The position numbers and the translations under genes were made by a program. This document shows, in pieces, positions 1 through 34,579 of a stretch of 64,000 bases of DNA; within the stretch, counting starts at the first letter, position 1; the number at the start of each line of letters is the position of its first letter. Source of the stretch: a bacterium (GTDB lineage Bacteria; Patescibacteriota; Minisyncoccia; Phycocordibacterales; UBA1550); NCBI GenBank assembly GCA_030649835.1, contig JAUSES010000029.1, forward strand, positions 4,130 through 68,129, read 5' to 3'. The notes beneath the pieces are model-generated. The model was given only the letters and a program-made list of their open reading frames with translations. It searched no databases and was not told the origin of the DNA.

Positions 1-3000
1 CCTGTGCCGTTGGTAAAGCGTGCAACTACTCCGGTTGCGGTTTGTGAGACATGCAATCGTTGCTCTGGGGTGGTGGTGCCAATTCCCACATTCACTGCAA
101 ACGCTCCTGTCCCACCCAAAATGAGCGTATTTGAAGCGGTAGCTTGCGCCAAATAACCGATCGCGGCTGCATTGACGAGGTTGTTTGGAGTAGTCACGGT
201 GCCATCAGTGTATCCAGAGCTATATCCAATAAAAGTGTTCTGGTAGCCAACTGTGTTTGCGTTTCCTGATTGATATCCGATTGCCACAGATGAAGTGCCC
301 GTAGTATTGCTTGCTAGGGCTGAGTCTCCGATTGCAGTGTTTTGAATCCCACTTGAATTTGAAAACAATGCCGATTCCCCAATTGCAGTATTAGAATAAC
401 CTATTGTATTTAGATTAAGAGCTGAGTATCCAATTGCTACATTGAAAAAGCCTGTAGTATTTGAAAAAAGCGCTCTCCATCCTATTGCCGTGTTGAAGTC
501 AGAAGAAGTAGCGACATTAAGCGCCTGATATCCTATCGCAGTATTCTGTGAGCCGTCTGAAAGAAGCGCTGCTCCAGCACCTATCCCCGCTAGTGTTGAA
601 AAGTTTGTCGATGAAGCATACAAAATAGTATTTCCTGCCTGCTTGTAGCCGGAGTATTGGTCAGTGTTGATGAAGCCTGAAACGTCGAGTTTGTAGCCGG
701 GGATAGTCGTCCCTATTCCAACATTGTTTGATGAGTAATCATACACGAATCCGTTTGTTTCCACTGCGAATCCTCCAGCAAAGGTCGAGGTGGCGGTGGT
801 GCTTGTTGCCGTAAGGTAGTTGACCGTGGGACTTGTTGAGGAAGTGAGCGTCGTTCCATCAGAATGGAGCCACCCTTGTCCGAAGGATGTTTGACCCGTG
901 CCTCCCTTTGCGACTGTGAGGGTGCCGGAGATTGTGGCAAGAGTAGTCGTCGCCACCCATGCAGGCAAGCCGTTTGAAACACCGAGGACGTATCCACCGG
1001 TACCAATGCTGAGTTTGTTTAATACGTTTGCAGAGCCAGAATAGAGGAGATCACCTGCGGTATAGGTGGAGAAACCGGTACCACCGTAGAACTGGGAGAG
1101 CGTGGAGCTTGCAGAAACGAGACCACTAATTGCTTGGAGTGGGCCAGTCAATGTACCGAGTGAGAAGTTTGAAGTGAAAAGGTTGGTTGAGGATGCAGTG
1201 GTGGAGAAGGAATTTGTTGAGGTTGCGCTCGTTGTCGTTGCATTCGTAGAAACTAGACTCGGGAAGGTGTTGTTTGAAGTGGTAGTTGCGGTGAAGAATG
1301 CCCCCACAACTTCGCCCACGACGGAGAGTTTCGCGTAGGGGGTGGTGGTACCAATTCCCACATTCACGGCGTCCGCTCCAGTGCCACCGAGGACGATCGT
1401 GTTTGATGCACCGACGCGGGCATTTTTCCCGATGGCGGTAATGTTGGTAAGAACAGAGGTGCTTGCAACCGTTTCAGAACGTGAGGCTTGGTAACCAAGA
1501 AACGTTGCAAACGTGTCGATGACGGACCGCTGATCCTGAGTTGTCCCATCTCCATATCCTGCCTGATAACCAAGAGCAGTTCCTCCTTGCCCCGTGGTGT
1601 TTGAATAGAATGTACGAAATCCGTTCACTGTATTGCTTCCTCCTGAAATATTAGAAAAAAGCGAGTCCACGCCGCTAGCCGTGTTACTCCCTCCTGTTGT
1701 ATTAGAGGACATTGCAGACCTACCAATCGCCGTGTTGTTTCCTCCTGTAGTATTAGTTAGGAGTGCATTCATTCCCACACCTGTGTTATTGCCAGCAGTA
1801 GTGTTTGCAAAAAGCGAGCGATATCCAAGAGCCGTATTGCTATCCGACGATGTCGCCACATTAAGCGCCTGGTACCCTATCGCAGTATTCTGTATGCCAT
1901 CAAAAAGGAGTGCTGCTCCAGCGCCATTTCCCACGAGCGTTGAGAAGCTGGTGGATGATGCATATAAAATAGTATTTCCTGCTTGCTTGTAGCCGGAGTA
2001 TTGGTCAGTGTTGATGAAGCCTGAAACGTCGAGCTTGTAGCCGGGGATAGTCGTCCCTATTCCAACATTGTTTGATGAGTAATCATACACGAATCCGTTT
2101 GTTTCCACTGCGAATCCTCCCGCAAACGTGGAAGTGGCGGTGGTAGAAGTGGCATTTATGATATTTGAAGTGATCGTCCCTGCAACCGCAAGCATCGACA
2201 TCGGACTTGTCGTACCAATTCCCACATTCACGGCGTCCGCTCCAGTGCCACCGAGGACGATCGTGTTTGATGCACCGACGCGGGCGTTTTTCCCGATGGC
2301 GGTGCCGTTGGTGAGTGCTGTTGTGGATGCGACAGATGCATCACGTGAGGCTTGAAAACCAAAAAATGTCATAAATGTATCAATCACCGACTGCTGGTCT
2401 AGAGTGGTGCCGTCTCCTACTCCTGCTTGATACCCGATAGCAGTAGAAGAGGCGCCGGTGGTGTTGAACTGTAGGGCACCGTATCCATTTGCGGTGTTGG
2501 AAGAGCCGGTGGTGTTCTGGTTGAGTGAATAACTTCCCTCTGCGGTATTGTTCTCGCCCGTGGTATTAGCAGCTAGAGATACCACTCCGTTTGCTGTGTT
2601 TAAAGAGCCGGTAGTATTGTTAGCAAGCGACTGATAACCGCTTGAGGTATTAGAAGCCCCCGTAGTATTCAAAGTAAGAGCCCTATTTCCGTTTGCTGTA
2701 TTGAAAAGACCAGTGGTATTAGCACGGAGTGCAAAATAGCCATTTGCGGTATTGTAAGAGCCTGTTGTATTTCCCGAAAGAGCCTGCGCCCCTATCGCGC
2801 TATTCTGAATACCACTCGTGTTTGCGGTGAGCGCTATATATCCTACTGCTGTATTGTAGTCGGTAGATGTTGCTGTGTAGAGAGTTTGATAACCTATTGC
2901 CACATTCCCATCTCCCGATGTGTTAGAGTAAAGTGATTGATAACCATTACCAAGATTAAAAAAGCCCGTTGTATTTGAATAGCCTGCTTGATATCCAGTA

Positions 3001-23627: not shown

Positions 23628-24236
23628 TTAGATTTTATAAATAAACCATGCGCCAACAATCCCACCCAACAACGGCACAAAAGATATTTTCTTAGATTTG
23701 ATGACCTCAAATATTTTTGGGTCTGTAATTCGTCCATGTCGAGCGCGAGCCCCCAATCGTAGTGCATTGATTCCTTTTTCTTTTGACCGAGTACGAAGTG
23801 TGTCACTTACTGCCACTTGCGTCATTTTGTCAGTTGGTTCAATAACGAGCAAGACACCGCCATGTTTTACCGCACTAAAAAGCGAGATTAGGGCGGCAGA
23901 CTTATCTTCAAGTGTCGCAAGTAAAGAAGACGCGGAAACAACATCCGCACTTTCTTTCTTGAGATGCAATGCATCTCCAACCTCAAAAACCGCATTTGAC
24001 CTTTCATTGTGAGCAATTCTCCTTGCCTCACGAATCATAAAAGGATCTGTGTCTATTCCTGTTGCGTCGTATCCATTTTCTACGGCAAGACGGGTCATGA
24101 GCCCTGGCCCACAGCCAACATCAAGCCACTTCCCGTTTTCAATCCTTGGAAGAATGTTCACCGCTTCAGAGTGTAGGTTTTTGTAAAAAACTGCTCCTTG
24201 TAACCAAACAAATAATTTTGCACTTAGATAGCTCAT
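23628..24236 (-). CDS. class I SAM-dependent methyltransferase
   Basis: LDVGCGPGLMT is motif I. Confidence 0.7.
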   Translation of the reverse strand: MSYLSAKLFVWLQGAVFYKNLHSEAVNILPRIENGKWLDVGCGPGLMTRLAVENGYDATGIDTDPFMIREARRIAHNERSNAVFEVGDALHLKKESADVVSASSLLATLEDKSAALISLFSAVKHGGVLLVIEPTDKMTQVAVSDTLRTRSKEKGINALRLGARARHGRITDPKIFEVIKSKKISFVPLLGGIVGAWFIYKI

Positions 24237-24620
24237 TTATTGGTCGTTAGACTTTTTCGGCATCCAAAACAAGAGAAGAGCCACAAAAGCCGTCGCATTT
24301 ACCATCGGGAATAATGACACCGACAAAGCGAGTGTACCATTTATCGTATAGAATATTCCCACCGCAAGATCGACAATCTGGATAAATAACATGTTTTTTA
24401 TCCAAAATACATTCTTTTCTGGATTTTTGGCGATAGCAAACATCCCTACCCCGTATGCGAGAAACCGTGCGGCCAGCATTCCAAGCAAATAAGCGCCGTC
24501 AGTGGGAATGACGGAGAGCCCCATCCATCCAACAAGATTAAGTGGCACAAAAAGAAGCCCAGCCCCTAAAATGAGTTGCACAACACCAATTAATCTTAAT
24601 AGAATCTTCAATTTTTTCAT
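24237..24620 (-). CDS. four-TM membrane protein, directly abutting the downstream methyltransferase gene
   Basis: Hydropathy; operon adjacency. Confidence 0.45.
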   Translation of the reverse strand: MKKLKILLRLIGVVQLILGAGLLFVPLNLVGWMGLSVIPTDGAYLLGMLAARFLAYGVGMFAIAKNPEKNVFWIKNMLFIQIVDLAVGIFYTINGTLALSVSLFPMVNATAFVALLLFWMPKKSNDQ

Positions 24621-24705
24621 AATATTTTTTAAAAATTAATAAACTTGCACCTCAAAAGAATAGCAAGTATACTATCTAATGTAAAGTAGTTACCTTTTAG
24701 AAACC

Positions 24706-25044
24706 ATGAAAAACACAAAACTTATCAAAGATGTCCCGTCTCTCTGTAGTCCAGACTGTCCTGTGAAAAAGACTGCCGATATTATTGATGGGAAATGGGT
24801 TACCCTTATTGTTCGTGACCTTTTATCAGGCAAAAAAAGATATTCGGAATTATTAAAGTCCCTTGTGGGCGTTAGTCCCAAAATCCTTGCAGCACGACTA
24901 AAATATCTTGAGGAAAAGGGAATCCTCACGAGAAAGCCTTATCCTACGGTCCCTCCAAAAACAGAATATGAATTAACAAAATTAGGACTAAAATTAAAGG
25001 ACGTTGTACTTGCAATGGAGGTGTTTGGAGAACATCTTTCATAA
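24706..25044 (+). CDS. HxlR-family winged-helix transcriptional regulator
   Basis: CPV…IIDGKWVTLIVRDLLSGKKRYSELLKSL…YPTVPPKTEYELT is HxlR-type. Confidence 0.75.
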   Translation: MKNTKLIKDVPSLCSPDCPVKKTADIIDGKWVTLIVRDLLSGKKRYSELLKSLVGVSPKILAARLKYLEEKGILTRKPYPTVPPKTEYELTKLGLKLKDVVLAMEVFGEHLS

Positions 25045-25133
25045 AATATGACATCTCTCATACTACCTTCCTATTGCATTTTTTAGTAAACTGGTTTACT
25101 ATATCTTAACCCTGCTAATGGGGCAAATAAAAA

Positions 25134-25553
25134 ATGTGGATTAAAACTTATAGCAAAAAAGTAACGGGAGTGAATATAAATAAAATCTGGAGCGTTTGGA
25201 CTGATGTAAATAATTGGCATACATGGCAAGATGATATTGATTATGCAAAAATAGAAGGAGTATTTGAAGTTGGTAATACTTTTCTGCTCAAGCCAAAGGG
25301 TGGCCCTAAAGTGAAGATTGAAATTATTAGAGTTGAAGAAACTGTAAATTTTACTGATCTAACTAAATTTCCTCTTGCGAAAATGATTGGATCTCACGAT
25401 TTTATTATAGATGGGAACGAATTAGAAATTCGAACAACAATGTCCATAAAGGGGCCATTGTCTTTCCTATGGAGAAAAATAGTTGCAGAAGGTGTTGCAA
25501 ATGGAATGGAGGAGCAAACTAATAAACTTATTGAGCGTGCAAGAAATGTCTAG
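25134..25553 (+). CDS. SRPBCC (polyketide cyclase/AHSA1-like) family protein
   Basis: Typical partner of HxlR regulators; beta-rich 139-aa protein. Confidence 0.5.
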   Translation: MWIKTYSKKVTGVNINKIWSVWTDVNNWHTWQDDIDYAKIEGVFEVGNTFLLKPKGGPKVKIEIIRVEETVNFTDLTKFPLAKMIGSHDFIIDGNELEIRTTMSIKGPLSFLWRKIVAEGVANGMEEQTNKLIERARNV

Positions 25554-26016
25554 ACAATCTACTTTTAAACATGAGGAAGCTGACGACAGCGCAGGGTTCT
25601 TGCTTTGGAAAATAACAGTTCTGTGGCAAAAAAAGCTGTCAACAGTACTTGATCGCTTTAAGATTACTCAAACACAATATGCAATACTTGCTTCTTTAAG
25701 GTGGTTTGAAGAAAGAAATGAGCCACTGAAACAATCTCACCTAGCAGAACATACAAAAATAGACAAAATGACCCTCTCTAAAGCTATTCGGATGCTCGAG
25801 AAAAATGGATTAGTACTTCGGAAGAAATCAGTGCGTGATAGCCGAGCTACGGATGTTTTCTTTACTCCCCAAGGAAAAAAAATTACTGAGAAAGCTATCG
25901 TTGCTATTGAAAAAGCTGATGATGAGTTTTTTGCATGCCTCACCATAAAAACCCTTATTGAGTATAAAACCTTTACTAAGGTAATTATCTCGACAAATGA
26001 CTCCGCCTCGAATTAA
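25546..26016 (+). CDS. MarR-family transcriptional regulator
   Basis: wHTH (QYAILASLRWFEE…LAEHTKIDKMTLSKAIRMLEKNGLV). Its start overlaps the upstream stop as ATGTCTAG. Confidence 0.7.
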   Translation: MSRQSTFKHEEADDSAGFLLWKITVLWQKKLSTVLDRFKITQTQYAILASLRWFEERNEPLKQSHLAEHTKIDKMTLSKAIRMLEKNGLVLRKKSVRDSRATDVFFTPQGKKITEKAIVAIEKADDEFFACLTIKTLIEYKTFTKVIISTNDSASN

Positions 26017-26336
26017 AAAACTAAAACCTTATCAGATTGTTCGATCATCTTGAGGAGGTCATTCATTGTGGAGGTCGGAGCAATTTCTATTTTCTCTTTA
26101 CCGCGGATCTTTAGACAACTTCCACAAGCATAAATTTGGCCATTTAGTTTTTGAAACTCCAAAACCTTTACTGATATATCAAAATCGGTACTATCGGAAA
26201 TGGTATCAATCTCAGAGCCTTCATTCATTAGAAAAATTTCTACCTGATGCCCTGCTTTCATAGCGGTTAGACCAAGACGAAATGTATTATAGACACTTTC
26301 TATTTTATTCGTCTGTAGGATGATGCCAAGTTTCAT
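26013..26336 (-). CDS. DsrE/DsrF/TusD-like sulfur-relay family protein
   Basis: 107 aa with a DsrE-like fold and a conserved Cys (YACGSC). Confidence 0.55.
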   Translation of the reverse strand: MKLGIILQTNKIESVYNTFRLGLTAMKAGHQVEIFLMNEGSEIDTISDSTDFDISVKVLEFQKLNGQIYACGSCLKIRGKEKIEIAPTSTMNDLLKMIEQSDKVLVF

Positions 26337-26354: not shown

Positions 26355-26372
26355 AAGTTTTCTGTGTGGGAT
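26355..26372. repeat. direct repeat of the 3' end of tRNA-Gly(TCC) (gtgtgggataggggaa vs gtgcgggataggggaa), ~210 bp distal to the tRNA
   Basis: 16/17 nt match with tRNA positions 26565..26580. Confidence 0.55.
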
Positions 26373-26565
26373 AGGGGAACCGGGGTCAAGTTTCTAAGCT
26401 CGTAAACTTGCTAAGAACTTTCTCCCCCGGGAGTCCAAGACACAAATCTGCTGATTCGTCTGCGCCCTTTCGCAAGCTCAAGGTGCCCGCCTCCGCCTTT
26501 CGATTCTCCGTACCCGCTACAAAATGCAACAACGCAGAAACTTTCGTTTCAGCGTTGGCATTTTG

Positions 26566-26636
26566 TGCGGGATAGGGGAATCGAACTCCTGATTTCAGTT
26601 TGGAAAACTGAAGTTATACCATTTAACTAATCCCGC
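26566..26636 (-). tRNA. tRNA-Gly (anticodon TCC)
   Basis: Cloverleaf: acceptor GCGGGAT/ATCCCGC, anticodon loop TTTCCAA, T-loop TTCGATT. Confidence 0.85.
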
Positions 26637-26727
26637 AATTTCTTAGAGAATATCAGAAACGACCGAGTTTCGCAACTGCGAAACTCGGTCGTTTCTAACA
26701 CCTACCAACTAAAACCTATCAACTGTT

Positions 26728-30349: not shown

Positions 30350-30686
30350 TTGCTACCTCCATTTAAATAATGCACTTCGAAAAAAATAAAAGTTTTATTT
30401 ACACCTACCCTCCCTTACCCTACGCTTGTAGTTGCAAAAGTCAATGTGCCAAAACAGCTTCTTTCTGTGGGTACTGTGGTCACGGATCACTAAGTCTCCT
30501 CATTTGCTCTGCAAATTACGGGGACTAAGTATCCGCTACCCCACCTCGCGGTTTTTGAAAAAATCGGAAAGAAAACTTTTTTTAAAAACATCGCTGCGGT
30601 CGGCACAGCAGTACGGAAGCAAAGCTGTTTGCTTCTTAATTCAAACAGTTACGCAAGCTTATGAGTAACTGTTTGAATTACTGTTG

Positions 30687-30758
30687 TGCCCTCAATAGGA
30701 ATCGAACCTATATTGCAAGCTTCGGAAGCTTGAATCCTATCCATTGAATGATGAGGGC
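30687..30758 (-). tRNA. tRNA-Arg (anticodon CCG)
   Basis: Acceptor GCCCTCA/TGAGGGC, anticodon loop TTCCGAA, T-loop TTCGATT. Confidence 0.8.
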
Positions 30759-31963: not shown

Positions 31964-31974
31964 TACAAAATTCT

Positions 31975-32320
31975 AGTCGGGGTGCCGTGCCCAAGGCATG
32001 AATCAGCTGATTCAGAATCGAACTCGGCCTAATCTAAATTTCTTATGGAAATTTCCGCGGAAGTGTTTGGACACTTCCGGTTAAAGCTTTAGTCGGGGTG
32101 CCGAGGAATCCCCGCCTGCCATCGCCTGACTGATCCTTACGAAGCGATTGGCAGTGGCGGGCAGGGAACTCGGCCTATATTCTAGTGAGTGAGCGAAAAG
32201 TAAATACCAATTTACTTTTCCGAGCGAACGACGAATATATTGTACCCAGTTATATCTAAATTTCTAAAGGAAATTTCCGCGAAAGCATCTATATGCTTTC
32301 GGTTAAAGAATGTGTCGGGG
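31975..32320. repeat. two degenerate tRNA-Pro 3'-fragment copies (gtcggggtgccg…aactcggcc), each interrupted by an insertion of ~27 or ~60 nt and followed by a conserved ~60-nt hairpin segment
   Basis: Compared against the intact tRNA at 32315..32385; shared downstream block atctaaatttctNaNggaaatttccgcg…ttNcggttaaag. Confidence 0.55.
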
Positions 32321-32385
32321 TGCCGAGAATCGAACTCGGCCTATCTGCTCCCAAAGCAGACGTACTACCGATATACTACACCCCG
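32315..32385 (-). tRNA. tRNA-Pro (anticodon GGG)
   Basis: C1:G72 and A73 as in bacterial tRNA-Pro, anticodon loop TTGGGAG, T-loop TTCGATT. Confidence 0.75.
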
Positions 32386-32399
32386 ACACATTCTTCAAC

Positions 32400-32495
32400 C
32401 CCACGCAGACGTACTACCGATATACTACACCCCGACTAAAGCTTCAACCCCAAAGCAGACGTACTACCGATATATAACTGCATACAATATATCCT
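32400..32495. repeat. two additional partial copies of the tRNA-Pro 5' half (gcagacgtactaccgatata…) in tandem upstream of the tRNA
   Basis: Period ~45-49 bp with three copies including the tRNA itself. Confidence 0.55.
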
Positions 32496-32647
32496 GCGTT
32501 CGCTCGAAAATACAAACTCCATGTTTGTATTTTACTCACTCACTTGGATATACTACACCCCGTTACACGTGAAACGTAGGAGAATATTAGCACACAAGAG
32601 GCAAATTACGAAATTTGAACACTTGGAACCAGAACATGGGGTAGGTT

Positions 32648-34256: not shown

Positions 34257-34327
34257 GCGGATATAATTTAGTGGTAGAATTCCTCGTTGCCAACGAGAGA
34301 GTGGGAGTTCGATTCTCCCTATCCGCA
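34257..34327 (+). tRNA. tRNA-Gly (anticodon GCC)
   Basis: Acceptor GCGGATA/TATCCGC, anticodon loop TTGCCAA, T-loop TTCGATT; terminator hairpin gccccgaaaggggc+T5 at 34337..34362. Confidence 0.85.
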
Positions 34328-34511
34328 CAATTAAAATTGCCCCGAAAGGGGCTTTTTAATTGTGCGGATAGAGCAAGCCTCCTGCTTGGCTTGCGTGGAG
34401 AATCGAAAGCCGGAATATATTTTTGTAATCAAAAATAATGAGGTGGGGTCGAGGGTACTTAGATTTTTGTGAGTAATGCGATACAAAAAGCTTAGTAACC
34501 CGTGACCGAAA

Positions 34512-34527
34512 GCCCTATCCGCACAAT
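34512..34527. repeat. direct repeat of the tRNA-Gly(GCC) 3' end (ccctatccgcacaat), ~195 bp distal to the tRNA
   Basis: Exact 15-nt repeat of 34318..34332. The intervening segment starts with tgcggatagag (tRNA 5'-like) and contains ggagaatcgaaagccgg, shared with the element next to tRNA-Gly(TCC). Confidence 0.55.
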
Positions 34528-34579
34528 AAATATAAAATAGTCAGCCTCTCTTGAGAGGCTGACTATTTTATATTTATTG

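Follow-up and report, generated by a model that had tools for sequence, protein, structure and literature searches.

What does a second copy of a tRNA 3' end record when it lies a short distance behind an intact tRNA gene? The question is raised by the tRNA-Gly(TCC) gene of a 64,000-nucleotide stretch of bacterial DNA (the window), where an initial annotation took such a repeat as the possible attL/attR signature of an integrase-borne island that had since been excised or had decayed. We find that the segment between the copies is one of a family of structured non-coding elements, ~150-190 nt long and apparently not described before, in the Paceibacteria (CPR bacteria). The family, named X, is defined by a covariance model (CM), R1, and is represented in the window by the copy behind tRNA-Gly(TCC) (copy A) and by two others, B and C.

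The repeat behind tRNA-Gly(TCC)

The tRNA-Gly(TCC) gene and the repeat downstream of it were both located where first described, by ARAGORN, Rfam and a mismatch search of the 64 kb. The 3' end of the gene, TTCCCCTATCCCGCAC (26565..26580, minus strand), is repeated on the same strand as TTCCCCTATCCCACAC (26364..26379) with one mismatch, 185 nt downstream. The match is better than chance, as with up to two mismatches TTCCCCTATCCCGCAC has two matches in the 64 kb against a shuffled expectation of 0.02, and none of 100 shuffles gives two. Between the tRNA end and its repeat lies a feature previously overlooked, an antisense copy of the tRNA end (GCGGGTACGGAGAATCGAA, 26499..26517), and the sequence of tRNA positions 54-73 is present in two downstream copies. 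The order on the minus strand is tRNA, 46-nt hairpin, antisense copy (AS), ~120 nt of hairpins and sense repeat (S).

The block GGAGAATCGAAAG(G/C)CGG, reported as common to the segments behind the two tRNA-Gly genes, is indeed found in both (26493..26509, minus strand, and 34397..34413, plus strand). Alone it is weak evidence, with an expectation of 0.26 and two of 100 shuffles reaching two matches, and it is explained by the family analysis: from the order of parts in copies A and B, the block is the T-arm piece of the AS and the first core helix, comprising in copy A the AS, the junction and that helix. The proposed relationship of the two segments is confirmed by R1, which matches both, and which finds exactly three copies in the window (B at 141 bits, C at 72.7 bits and A at 24.9 bits; Table 1). 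The third related segment, behind tRNA-Arg(CCG), had gone unremarked.

Table 1. Features of the three window copies of X and of their host genes (CM, covariance model R1, whose E-values are rough because its calibration was shortened; AS and S, antisense and sense copies of the tRNA 3' end).
Feature	Position	Strand	Basis or remark
tRNA-Gly(TCC), host gene of copy A	26565/26566..26636	-	ARAGORN; Rfam RF00005, 67 bits
Copy A of X	26365..26517	-	behind tRNA-Gly(TCC), starting 48 nt after the tRNA; CM match 26365..26463, E=1.8e-5
Copy A trailer hairpin 'T', directly 3' of the tRNA	26519..26564	-	sequence and fold; 46 nt, without a U-run
Copy A AS, T loop to acceptor end of tRNA-Gly(TCC), GCGGGTACGGAGAATCGAA	26499..26517	-
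Copy A junction AG and core domain 1 (P2/P3 region; common loop of the family GAGCTTGCGAA)	26462..26498	-	weak CM match 26475..26509, 5.5 bits; comparison with other copies
Copy A extra hairpin between core domains, AGACGAATC-AGCA-GATTTGTGTCT	26438..26461	-	variant-specific
Copy A core domain 2 (P4/P5), CCGGGGGAGAAAGTTCTTAG-CAAGTTTACGAG-CTTAGAAACTTGACCCCGG	26380..26430	-	best-kept part
Copy A S, TTCCCCTATCCCACA	26365..26379	-	one mismatch to the resident tRNA
Copy C of X	30462..30645	-	behind tRNA-Arg(CCG) (30686..30758); CM 72.7 bits, E=1e-18
tRNA-Gly(GCC), host of copy B	34257..34327	+	ARAGORN; Rfam
Copy B trailer hairpin (GCCCC GAAA GGGGC TTTTT)	34328..34363	+	terminator-like
Copy B of X, canonical member	34364..34523	+	CM 141 bits, E=1e-37; fold z=-6.2
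Copy B AS, acceptor part (antisense of the acceptor 3' strand), GCGGATAG	34364..34371	+
Copy B CTGC-type hairpin hp1	34373..34394	+
Copy B AS, T-arm part (antisense of the T loop and T-stem 3' strand), GGAGAATCGAA	34397..34407	+
Copy B core, ending GTGACC	34409..34507	+
Copy B S	34513..34523	+
Bidirectional terminator-like hairpin common to copy B and the convergent tRNA-Arg(TCG)	34530..34573	.

Copy B has the same order of parts as copy A in cleaner form, with the tRNA-Gly(GCC) end CCCTATCCGCACAAT (34317..34331) repeated exactly over 15 nt at 34513..34527 and a trailer hairpin that is called as a terminator. Copy C is of a short-stem type, in which antisense and sense pair at the level of the trailer only, without a copy of the acceptor stem.

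Copy A matches R1, lies on the same strand as and behind its tRNA, and has both AS and S. Comparison with other copies gives no recognisable return (3') strand of P2 or YGAG junction, so that the complete core fold is absent, and an extra hairpin is present; its fold scores no better than shuffled sequence does (z=-0.30; copy B, z=-6.2). Domain 2 alone aligns well to R1; this domain has 93% identity over 46 nt to positions 2899..2944 of locus L092, from a Kaiserbacteria genome, and 85% to L068. L092 also represents the variant subfamily with extra hairpins between the domains. The trailer hairpin, which receives no terminator call, forms the apex of the inverted repeat made by the tRNA 3' end and the antisense copy. 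The two ends of copy A are chimeric: its AS is the exact complement of a tRNA-Gly(TCC) end of the type seen in L002 and L014 (TTCGATTCTCCGTACCCGC) and differs at four positions from the complement of the resident tRNA (15 of 19 match), while its S matches the resident tRNA. As the AS fits another tRNA-Gly(TCC) variant and part of domain 1 is missing, copy A is probably no longer fully intact, and we regard it as a divergent, chimeric and probably eroding member of X.

Distribution and genomic position of X

To judge by matches to its CCA-adding enzyme, the window belongs to a Patescibacterium within the Paceibacteria (Yonath-/Nomurabacteria-like). A core pattern derived from two window copies and the relatives was scanned against species-representative genomes, and identifies at least 118 loci in Patescibacteria. 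Taxon labels, used as deposited, are for the matches listed nearly all Patescibacteria, Paceibacteria, Parcubacteria or their candidate phyla. Among these same listed matches a same-strand tRNA precedes 86 of 121 cores by 74-250 nt, and the tRNA-trailing cores span 34 anticodons. The pattern has no match in 2.9 million viral contigs, leaving carriage by phage unsupported. The covariance model, built from 14 full copies, yields 146 copies in 100 loci, with 101 behind a tRNA, eight behind another copy, seven at locus edges and 30 'orphans', several of which trail the 3' end of tmRNA and have arms matched to it. In an unbiased sample of eight syntenic loci, picked via a protein and not via X, all 19 CM matches are adjacent to a tRNA and on its strand, standing behind about half of the 37 tRNAs present, and their scores grade continuously between 22 and 158 bits. 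Behind tRNA-Gly(TCC) X is found in many lineages and genera.

Across the whole window only tRNAs pass the gathering threshold of Rfam 15, and at E<=10 the two tRNA-Gly segments give only matches far below that threshold, unrelated and mostly to miRNA precursors; X does not qualify as a member of Rfam families including group I intron, tmRNA, Y RNA, self-cleaving ribozymes and T-box. The literature searched, of incomplete coverage, holds no description of X, the related preprint being concerned with group I introns.

Structure of the core

In the layout of X the tRNA is followed by the trailer hairpin, then by an antisense copy of tRNA positions 54-73 together with a few trailer bases, by a ~107-nt core of two domains and, last, by a sense copy from position 57. 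The trailer hairpin resembles an intrinsic terminator in many copies. The conserved and exchangeable unit is the ~107-nt core, which begins with the 5' strand of P2 (GNC-G-SAG) and ends with an invariant GTGACC, and which on the tRNA-sense strand comprises two hairpin domains meeting at a three-way junction. In the CM alignment 92.7% of paired cells can pair, compared with 69% in shuffled and 32-42% in slid controls, though these percentages overstate the intactness of the family because the copies were gathered by a conserved pattern and the sample is biased to intact members. Double changes are seen at all 38 pairs. Pairs of G.U type outnumber those of A.C type (169 versus 40) and the sense strand folds with greater stability than the antisense in 127 of 137 copies, which together assign the fold to the tRNA-sense strand. 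The same counts and folding energies rule out a structure on the opposite strand, as might belong to a convergent gene ending at a shared hairpin. A kink-turn or box C/D-like reading of the internal loop between P2 and P3 was set aside as the bulge is too short.

Relation of the arms to the host tRNA

The sequences flanking the core follow the tRNA behind which they lie. The antisense acceptor 7-mer of the cognate tRNA is present with at most one mismatch in 52 of 95 elements, compared with 18.9 for non-cognate tRNAs, and the cognate sense 7-mer in 40 of 95 compared with 7.4. About half of the copies lack one or both arms, and short-stem copies occur. The AS mirrors T-loop variants of its own tRNA (for example AATTGAA and AATCGGA), position 55 included, and extends to position 54, stopping at 65/66 in copies where a CTGC-type loop hairpin breaks into it. 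The S most often begins at T-loop position 57, directly after the invariant GTGACC, and the resulting sense duplication is ~17-20 nt long with a variable outer end.

When S and AS are compared with the tRNA at aligned positions they depart from it singly 84 times and jointly once, from which it follows that the closing stem is not evolving as a helix of its own; maintenance of this stem by its own compensatory evolution is thereby ruled out. In 17 of 18 acceptor pairs that are not Watson-Crick the AS complements the 3' strand and does not copy the 5' strand. This excludes an acceptor-stem mimic of the grade needed by aminoacyl-tRNA synthetases, the G3.U70 of tRNA-Ala being lost. Both arms have the resident tRNA, and not the other arm, as their source or as the sequence to which they stay identical. 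What had been called a direct repeat of the tRNA terminus is the S, which with the AS can close X as a long stem.

Variation between loci

The suggestion that an insertion behind the tRNA has the repeat at its far end is borne out by a pair of orthologous loci. In L003, the empty site, tRNA-Gly(TCC) is followed directly by its trailer and terminator, whereas in L005, the filled site, ~290 bp are inserted at this place, after which come a decayed GATTC..CATCCTGTA and then the trailer and terminator orthologous to those of L003. A near-identical unit (~97%) stands behind tRNA-Gly(GCC) in L002 and L014 and behind tRNA-Gly(TCC) in L005, with similarity starting right after position 73. In two further pairs, L096/L091 (one genome) and L108/L036, similarity is confined to the ~107 nt from the P2 5' strand to GTGACC, and each locus has a trailer hairpin, arms and an extra hairpin of its own. 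One core unit is thus combined with different tRNA-specific repeats at different loci, which indicates that the repeats come from the target and not from an att core borne by the element.

Tandem copies are found, the older one distal, as are truncated copies, and syntenic relatives differ in the presence, type and orientation of X. Copies within a genome are slightly more alike in their variable hairpins (0.60 versus 0.54, p=6e-7). Near-identical copies at different tRNAs are rare, with one informative pair above 88% identity in the sample, so recent bursts are unsupported. The ORFs downstream of the copies, when clustered, are diverse and include only syntenic housekeeping genes, with no partner or mobility gene; Pfam analysis of the window neighbours gives nothing mobile, and no reverse transcriptase is seen among the ORFs neighbouring any copy.

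Discussion

What is shown for X is a core conserved on one strand, arms copied from the target that join it sharply in the T loop, and polymorphism resembling that of insertions. We lean, with modest confidence, towards a non-autonomous insertion element of tRNA 3' ends that spares the gene, is probably expressed by read-through, and has a fold that would serve as the handle for an enzyme acting in trans. In such a scheme X would enter tRNA-like genes at the T loop or the 3' end, leaving the host gene intact with its last ~17-20 nt duplicated; repeated entry would build tandem arrays in which the newest copy lies beside the tRNA. Expression is predicted to occur by read-through from the tRNA promoter, an expectation made uncertain by the terminator-like trailer hairpin of many copies, and the strand-specific fold would be the form recognised by a putative trans-acting enzyme encoded elsewhere. 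The antisense copy of the tRNA end speaks against this scheme, as we know of no insertion chemistry that accounts for such a copy. Fold-back fill-in of a long single-stranded target overhang was considered as its origin and rejected, because the repeat ends at 73-77 and the centre of the palindrome lies ~20 nt beyond. Other observations also count against the insertion reading: strong compensatory evolution and a constant site behind tRNA-Gly(TCC) in many genera would fit a host-functional RNA equally well, and there is no moving enzyme near the copies, no match in viral contigs and no sign of a recent burst.

A host-functional non-coding RNA, co-transcribed with the tRNA and acting in cis on the maturation of tRNA and tmRNA, as a switch or a module for processing, is the rival that we take most seriously, as a tentative possibility. 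On such an account the 5' arm could pair either with the 3' half of the tRNA or with the 3' arm of X, the long perfect stem could be a site for RNase III-type or tRNA-processing enzymes, and the core might bind a protein or signal. Beyond the strand-specific, strongly covarying fold conserved over many genera, the constancy of position and orientation behind tRNA and tmRNA genes, and the presence of X behind tRNA-Gly(TCC) in many lineages, it draws support from the minimum-free-energy folds of tRNA plus X, which pair the tRNA 3' half with the AS and S with the tRNA 5' strand. Pairing in cis between the 14 nt 5' of P2 and the 16 nt 3' of P4 reaches -9.5 kcal/mol, compared with -6.0 kcal/mol for permuted partners, hp1 is placed at the acceptor/T-stem junction (65/64) of the AS, just where the body of a tRNA would branch, and the AS tracks position 55, which is outside S and would fit selection for pairing with the tRNA. 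However, the arms show no compensatory co-variation away from the tRNA (the single joint departure against 84), one or both arms are missing from about half of the copies, and short-stem copies occur. X is present at only about half of tRNAs, and orthologous tRNAs may be without it or have it truncated, in tandem or as a different type; identity pairs, G3.U70 among them, are not reproduced, the trailer hairpin is often terminator-like, and the fold of copy A is indistinguishable from shuffles.

The remaining readings can be rejected. The explanation closest to the initial annotation, in which an island or prophage entered the T loop of tRNA-Gly(TCC) by means of a tyrosine integrase, restored the gene with its own copy of the 3' end and then lost nearly all its content, we judge very improbable. 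It has in its favour a direct repeat that starts in the T loop and continues to the end of the tRNA, which is also seen where integrases use T-loop sites (att sites in tRNA genes are reportedly treated in Williams 2002), as well as the tandem arrays and the variable gene islet that adjoins copy A. But the DNA between the repeats, ~150 nt in copy A and without an ORF, is a conserved, covarying and strand-specific structured family and not the debris of decayed genes, and neither an integrase, nor its remnant, nor another mobility gene is found within or beside the copies. One core is associated with different tRNA-specific repeats, the shared sequence beginning after position 73 or at P2; 34 anticodons (among the matches listed) and tmRNA are occupied; the variable genes lie outside the repeat pair, with no further copy of the tRNA end to bound them; and the antisense copy, an integral part of the layout, is not predicted by an att model. 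A degenerate second tRNA-Gly or tRNA-like gene, that is a tandem duplicate which kept its acceptor stem and had its interior replaced, had also been suggested as worth a search and is likewise very improbable. The 5' arm does resemble a tRNA 5' acceptor strand, the 3' arm is the acceptor 3' strand, and hp1 branches at the acceptor/T junction. Yet neither ARAGORN nor the Rfam tRNA model, even at E<=10, finds a tRNA in 26355..26564, the D arm, anticodon arm and T loop are lacking, and the 5' arm extends as the complement of the T loop and trailer and, at G.U pairs, complements the 3' strand instead of repeating the 5' strand. A chance match, which has only the shortness of the repeat to recommend it, can be dismissed with near certainty given the shuffled expectation and the recurrence of the same layout at dozens of unrelated tRNAs.

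X, read here as a small insertion element at tRNA genes, fails the defining tests of each of the nearest known systems. With integrative elements at tRNA and tmRNA genes it shares a repeat from T loop to 3' end, an intact gene, tandem arrays and tmRNA targets, but it is only 150-190 bp long without an integrase, its repeats are target-specific around a common core where theirs are an att core borne by the element, it has an inverted copy of the tRNA end and a conserved strand-specific fold, and it occupies nearly all tRNA species. Like MITEs, REPIN-like elements, the tRNA-associated SINEs of eukaryotes and retroelements targeted to tRNA genes it is short, ORF-less and multi-copy, and like small non-autonomous repeats in general it has a target duplication, one sharp junction (core end/position 57) and one variable, and copies ranging from intact to eroded. 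It differs in having no terminal inverted repeats of its own, the arms being copies of the host tRNA, in its restriction to the 3' ends of tRNA-like genes, always in the orientation of the gene, and in having no known partner element. X is not a MITE in the strict sense, which requires element-specific terminal inverted repeats and a short duplication of fixed length, since its arms vary by locus and the outer end of its duplication is variable. To our knowledge the target duplications of known bacterial DDE elements are shorter than the ~17-20 nt of X.

Casposons duplicate 14-15 bp of target at tRNA 3' ends, and Cas1-type integration into CRISPR arrays is leader-proximal with duplication of the repeat. 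X resembles both in its long target duplication at a tRNA 3' end and in the apparently gene-proximal position of the newest copy, but no Cas1 or casposase gene is seen with it and it has no element-specific terminal repeats. Among tRNA-like modules (the tRNA-like domain of tmRNA, YrlA, viral TLS and mascRNA) there is likewise a stem of acceptor/T-stem sequence, sometimes with a hairpin at the junction; X departs from these in having no T loop or elbow, in a stem that runs on into the trailer, and in matching no Rfam model. The 5' strand of X is complementary to the 3' strand by Watson-Crick pairing, so that X lacks G3.U70 and other pairs of that sort. The group I introns described in tRNA genes of Patescibacteria interrupt the gene in the anticodon loop at 35/36, match the Rfam group I model and are self-splicing (bioRxiv 10.1101/2025.07.03.662931). 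These are structured RNA insertions tied to tRNA genes in the same phylum, as X is, but X, about half their size, follows a gene that is left intact, and no Rfam model matches it. Group I and II introns, IS200/605-type elements, the bridge RNA of IS110, the guide RNAs of TnpB/IscB and integron attC sites were dropped as candidates, the defining gene or motif of each being absent.

There is in our view a real, if minority, chance that X works by a principle not yet described. It may, and we put this forward only tentatively, be a new RNA-structured class that, within a CPR lineage, settles specifically at the T loop or 3' end of tRNA and tmRNA genes of all kinds and copies the last ~20 nt of the host RNA both ways. 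Such a class could be a bacterial SINE-like or single-stranded DNA element that depends on tRNA transcription and a putative T-arm-directed enzyme, or a domesticated cis-RNA whose AS competes with acceptor/T-stem pairing and so gates tRNA maturation. Provided that the family is what it appears to be, about half of the tRNA genes in a large CPR class carry a conserved, structured passenger of ~107 nt, which would make up a sizeable part of the non-coding DNA of these ~1 Mb genomes. X would then be a tractable case, and as an insertion element it might reveal a new route of DNA insertion that triplicates the end of a tRNA-like gene in sense, antisense and sense orientation. Were X instead a host RNA, the biogenesis of tRNA and tmRNA would have a new layer in organisms already known for their odd RNA biology. 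Partial tRNA copies in CPR genomes can mislead the annotation of islands, att sites and tRNAs, and R1 can be used to annotate X elements. Around the window's five tRNAs gene order is kept in relatives, and the neighbours of copy A are genes for a response regulator, DsrE, MarR, SRPBCC and HxlR proteins and a methyltransferase.

Host genes and hairpins of the family X elements

Transfer RNA genes are not the only hosts of family X, the structured non-coding elements found in the window behind tRNA genes. Upstream of the matches to the family's covariance model, inspection by eye shows that tmRNA genes also precede copies of X, at loci L022, L112, L100, L085, L081, L113 and L043 of other genomes. 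At these loci the tmRNA 3' end reads ...GGGGGTTCGATTCCCCCCATCTCCACCA, and the antisense arms of the copies that follow tmRNA genes agree with it, as judged by eye. Two X-bearing contigs have other taxon labels in their records, Parachlamydiaceae for L109 (JBAWVE010000197.1) and Patiriisocius for L021 (JBLHQB010000003.1), which are probably errors of binning or labelling and not signs of a wider host range for X.

A CTGC or similar tetraloop recurs at many loci in the hairpins adjoining the X core (examples in the table). In long-stem copies this hairpin is placed where acceptor stem and T stem meet, within the antisense arm; in short-stem copies it serves also as the terminator-like hairpin behind the tRNA, with its A-run and T-run, and is accompanied by a semi-conserved trailer, CAAAACGTAAAG.

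Positions of the features discussed (window coordinates unless a locus is named)
Feature	Position	Strand	Remarks
Variable islet, 6 accessory genes	23628..26336		Between HU gene and X element of tRNA-Gly(TCC)
Terminator-like hairpin, 20-bp	26654..26697	minus	After response-regulator gene
Core-adjacent hairpin examples	30611..30640; L005 3500..3545		Also L034, L036, L047, L088, L090, L128
tRNA-Pro(TGG)	32314..32385	minus	Nested among extra partial self-copies, 31965..32600
ORF, 245 aa	33454..34191	plus	Immediately upstream of tRNA-Gly(GCC)
tRNA-Gly(GCC) with its X element	34257..34523	plus	

Surroundings of the glycine tRNA genes

The islet beside tRNA-Gly(TCC) encodes a methyltransferase, a DUF6632-like membrane protein, and HxlR, SRPBCC, MarR and DsrE proteins, and in relatives the same spot holds other cargo or is empty. 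No further copy of the tRNA-Gly(TCC) end bounds the islet. On the other side, only ~17 nt separate the end of the response-regulator hairpin from the tRNA, and there is therefore hardly any space for a separate tRNA promoter.

The tRNA-Gly(GCC) gene differs in strand among the syntenic relatives: both the window, where it has its X element, and L008 have it on the plus strand, the others compared (L002, L003, L005, L007 and L011-L014) on the minus strand, which points to an inversion confined to the tRNA unit. The adjoining ORF gives only weak helix-turn-helix matches, with no family assignment, and L008 has a 228-aa homologue at the equivalent position.

Partial copies around tRNA-Pro(TGG)

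The partial copies of tRNA-Pro(TGG) gave no match above noise with the X covariance model. Upstream of the gene its 5' half is present two to three times, once with a D-loop insertion, and downstream its 3' part is present twice, one of these copies containing a ~55-nt hairpin within the T loop, after TTC. Leaders and trailers in the cluster are complementary (TTGAAGCTTTAGTCGGGG versus CCCCGACTAAAGCTTTAACC).
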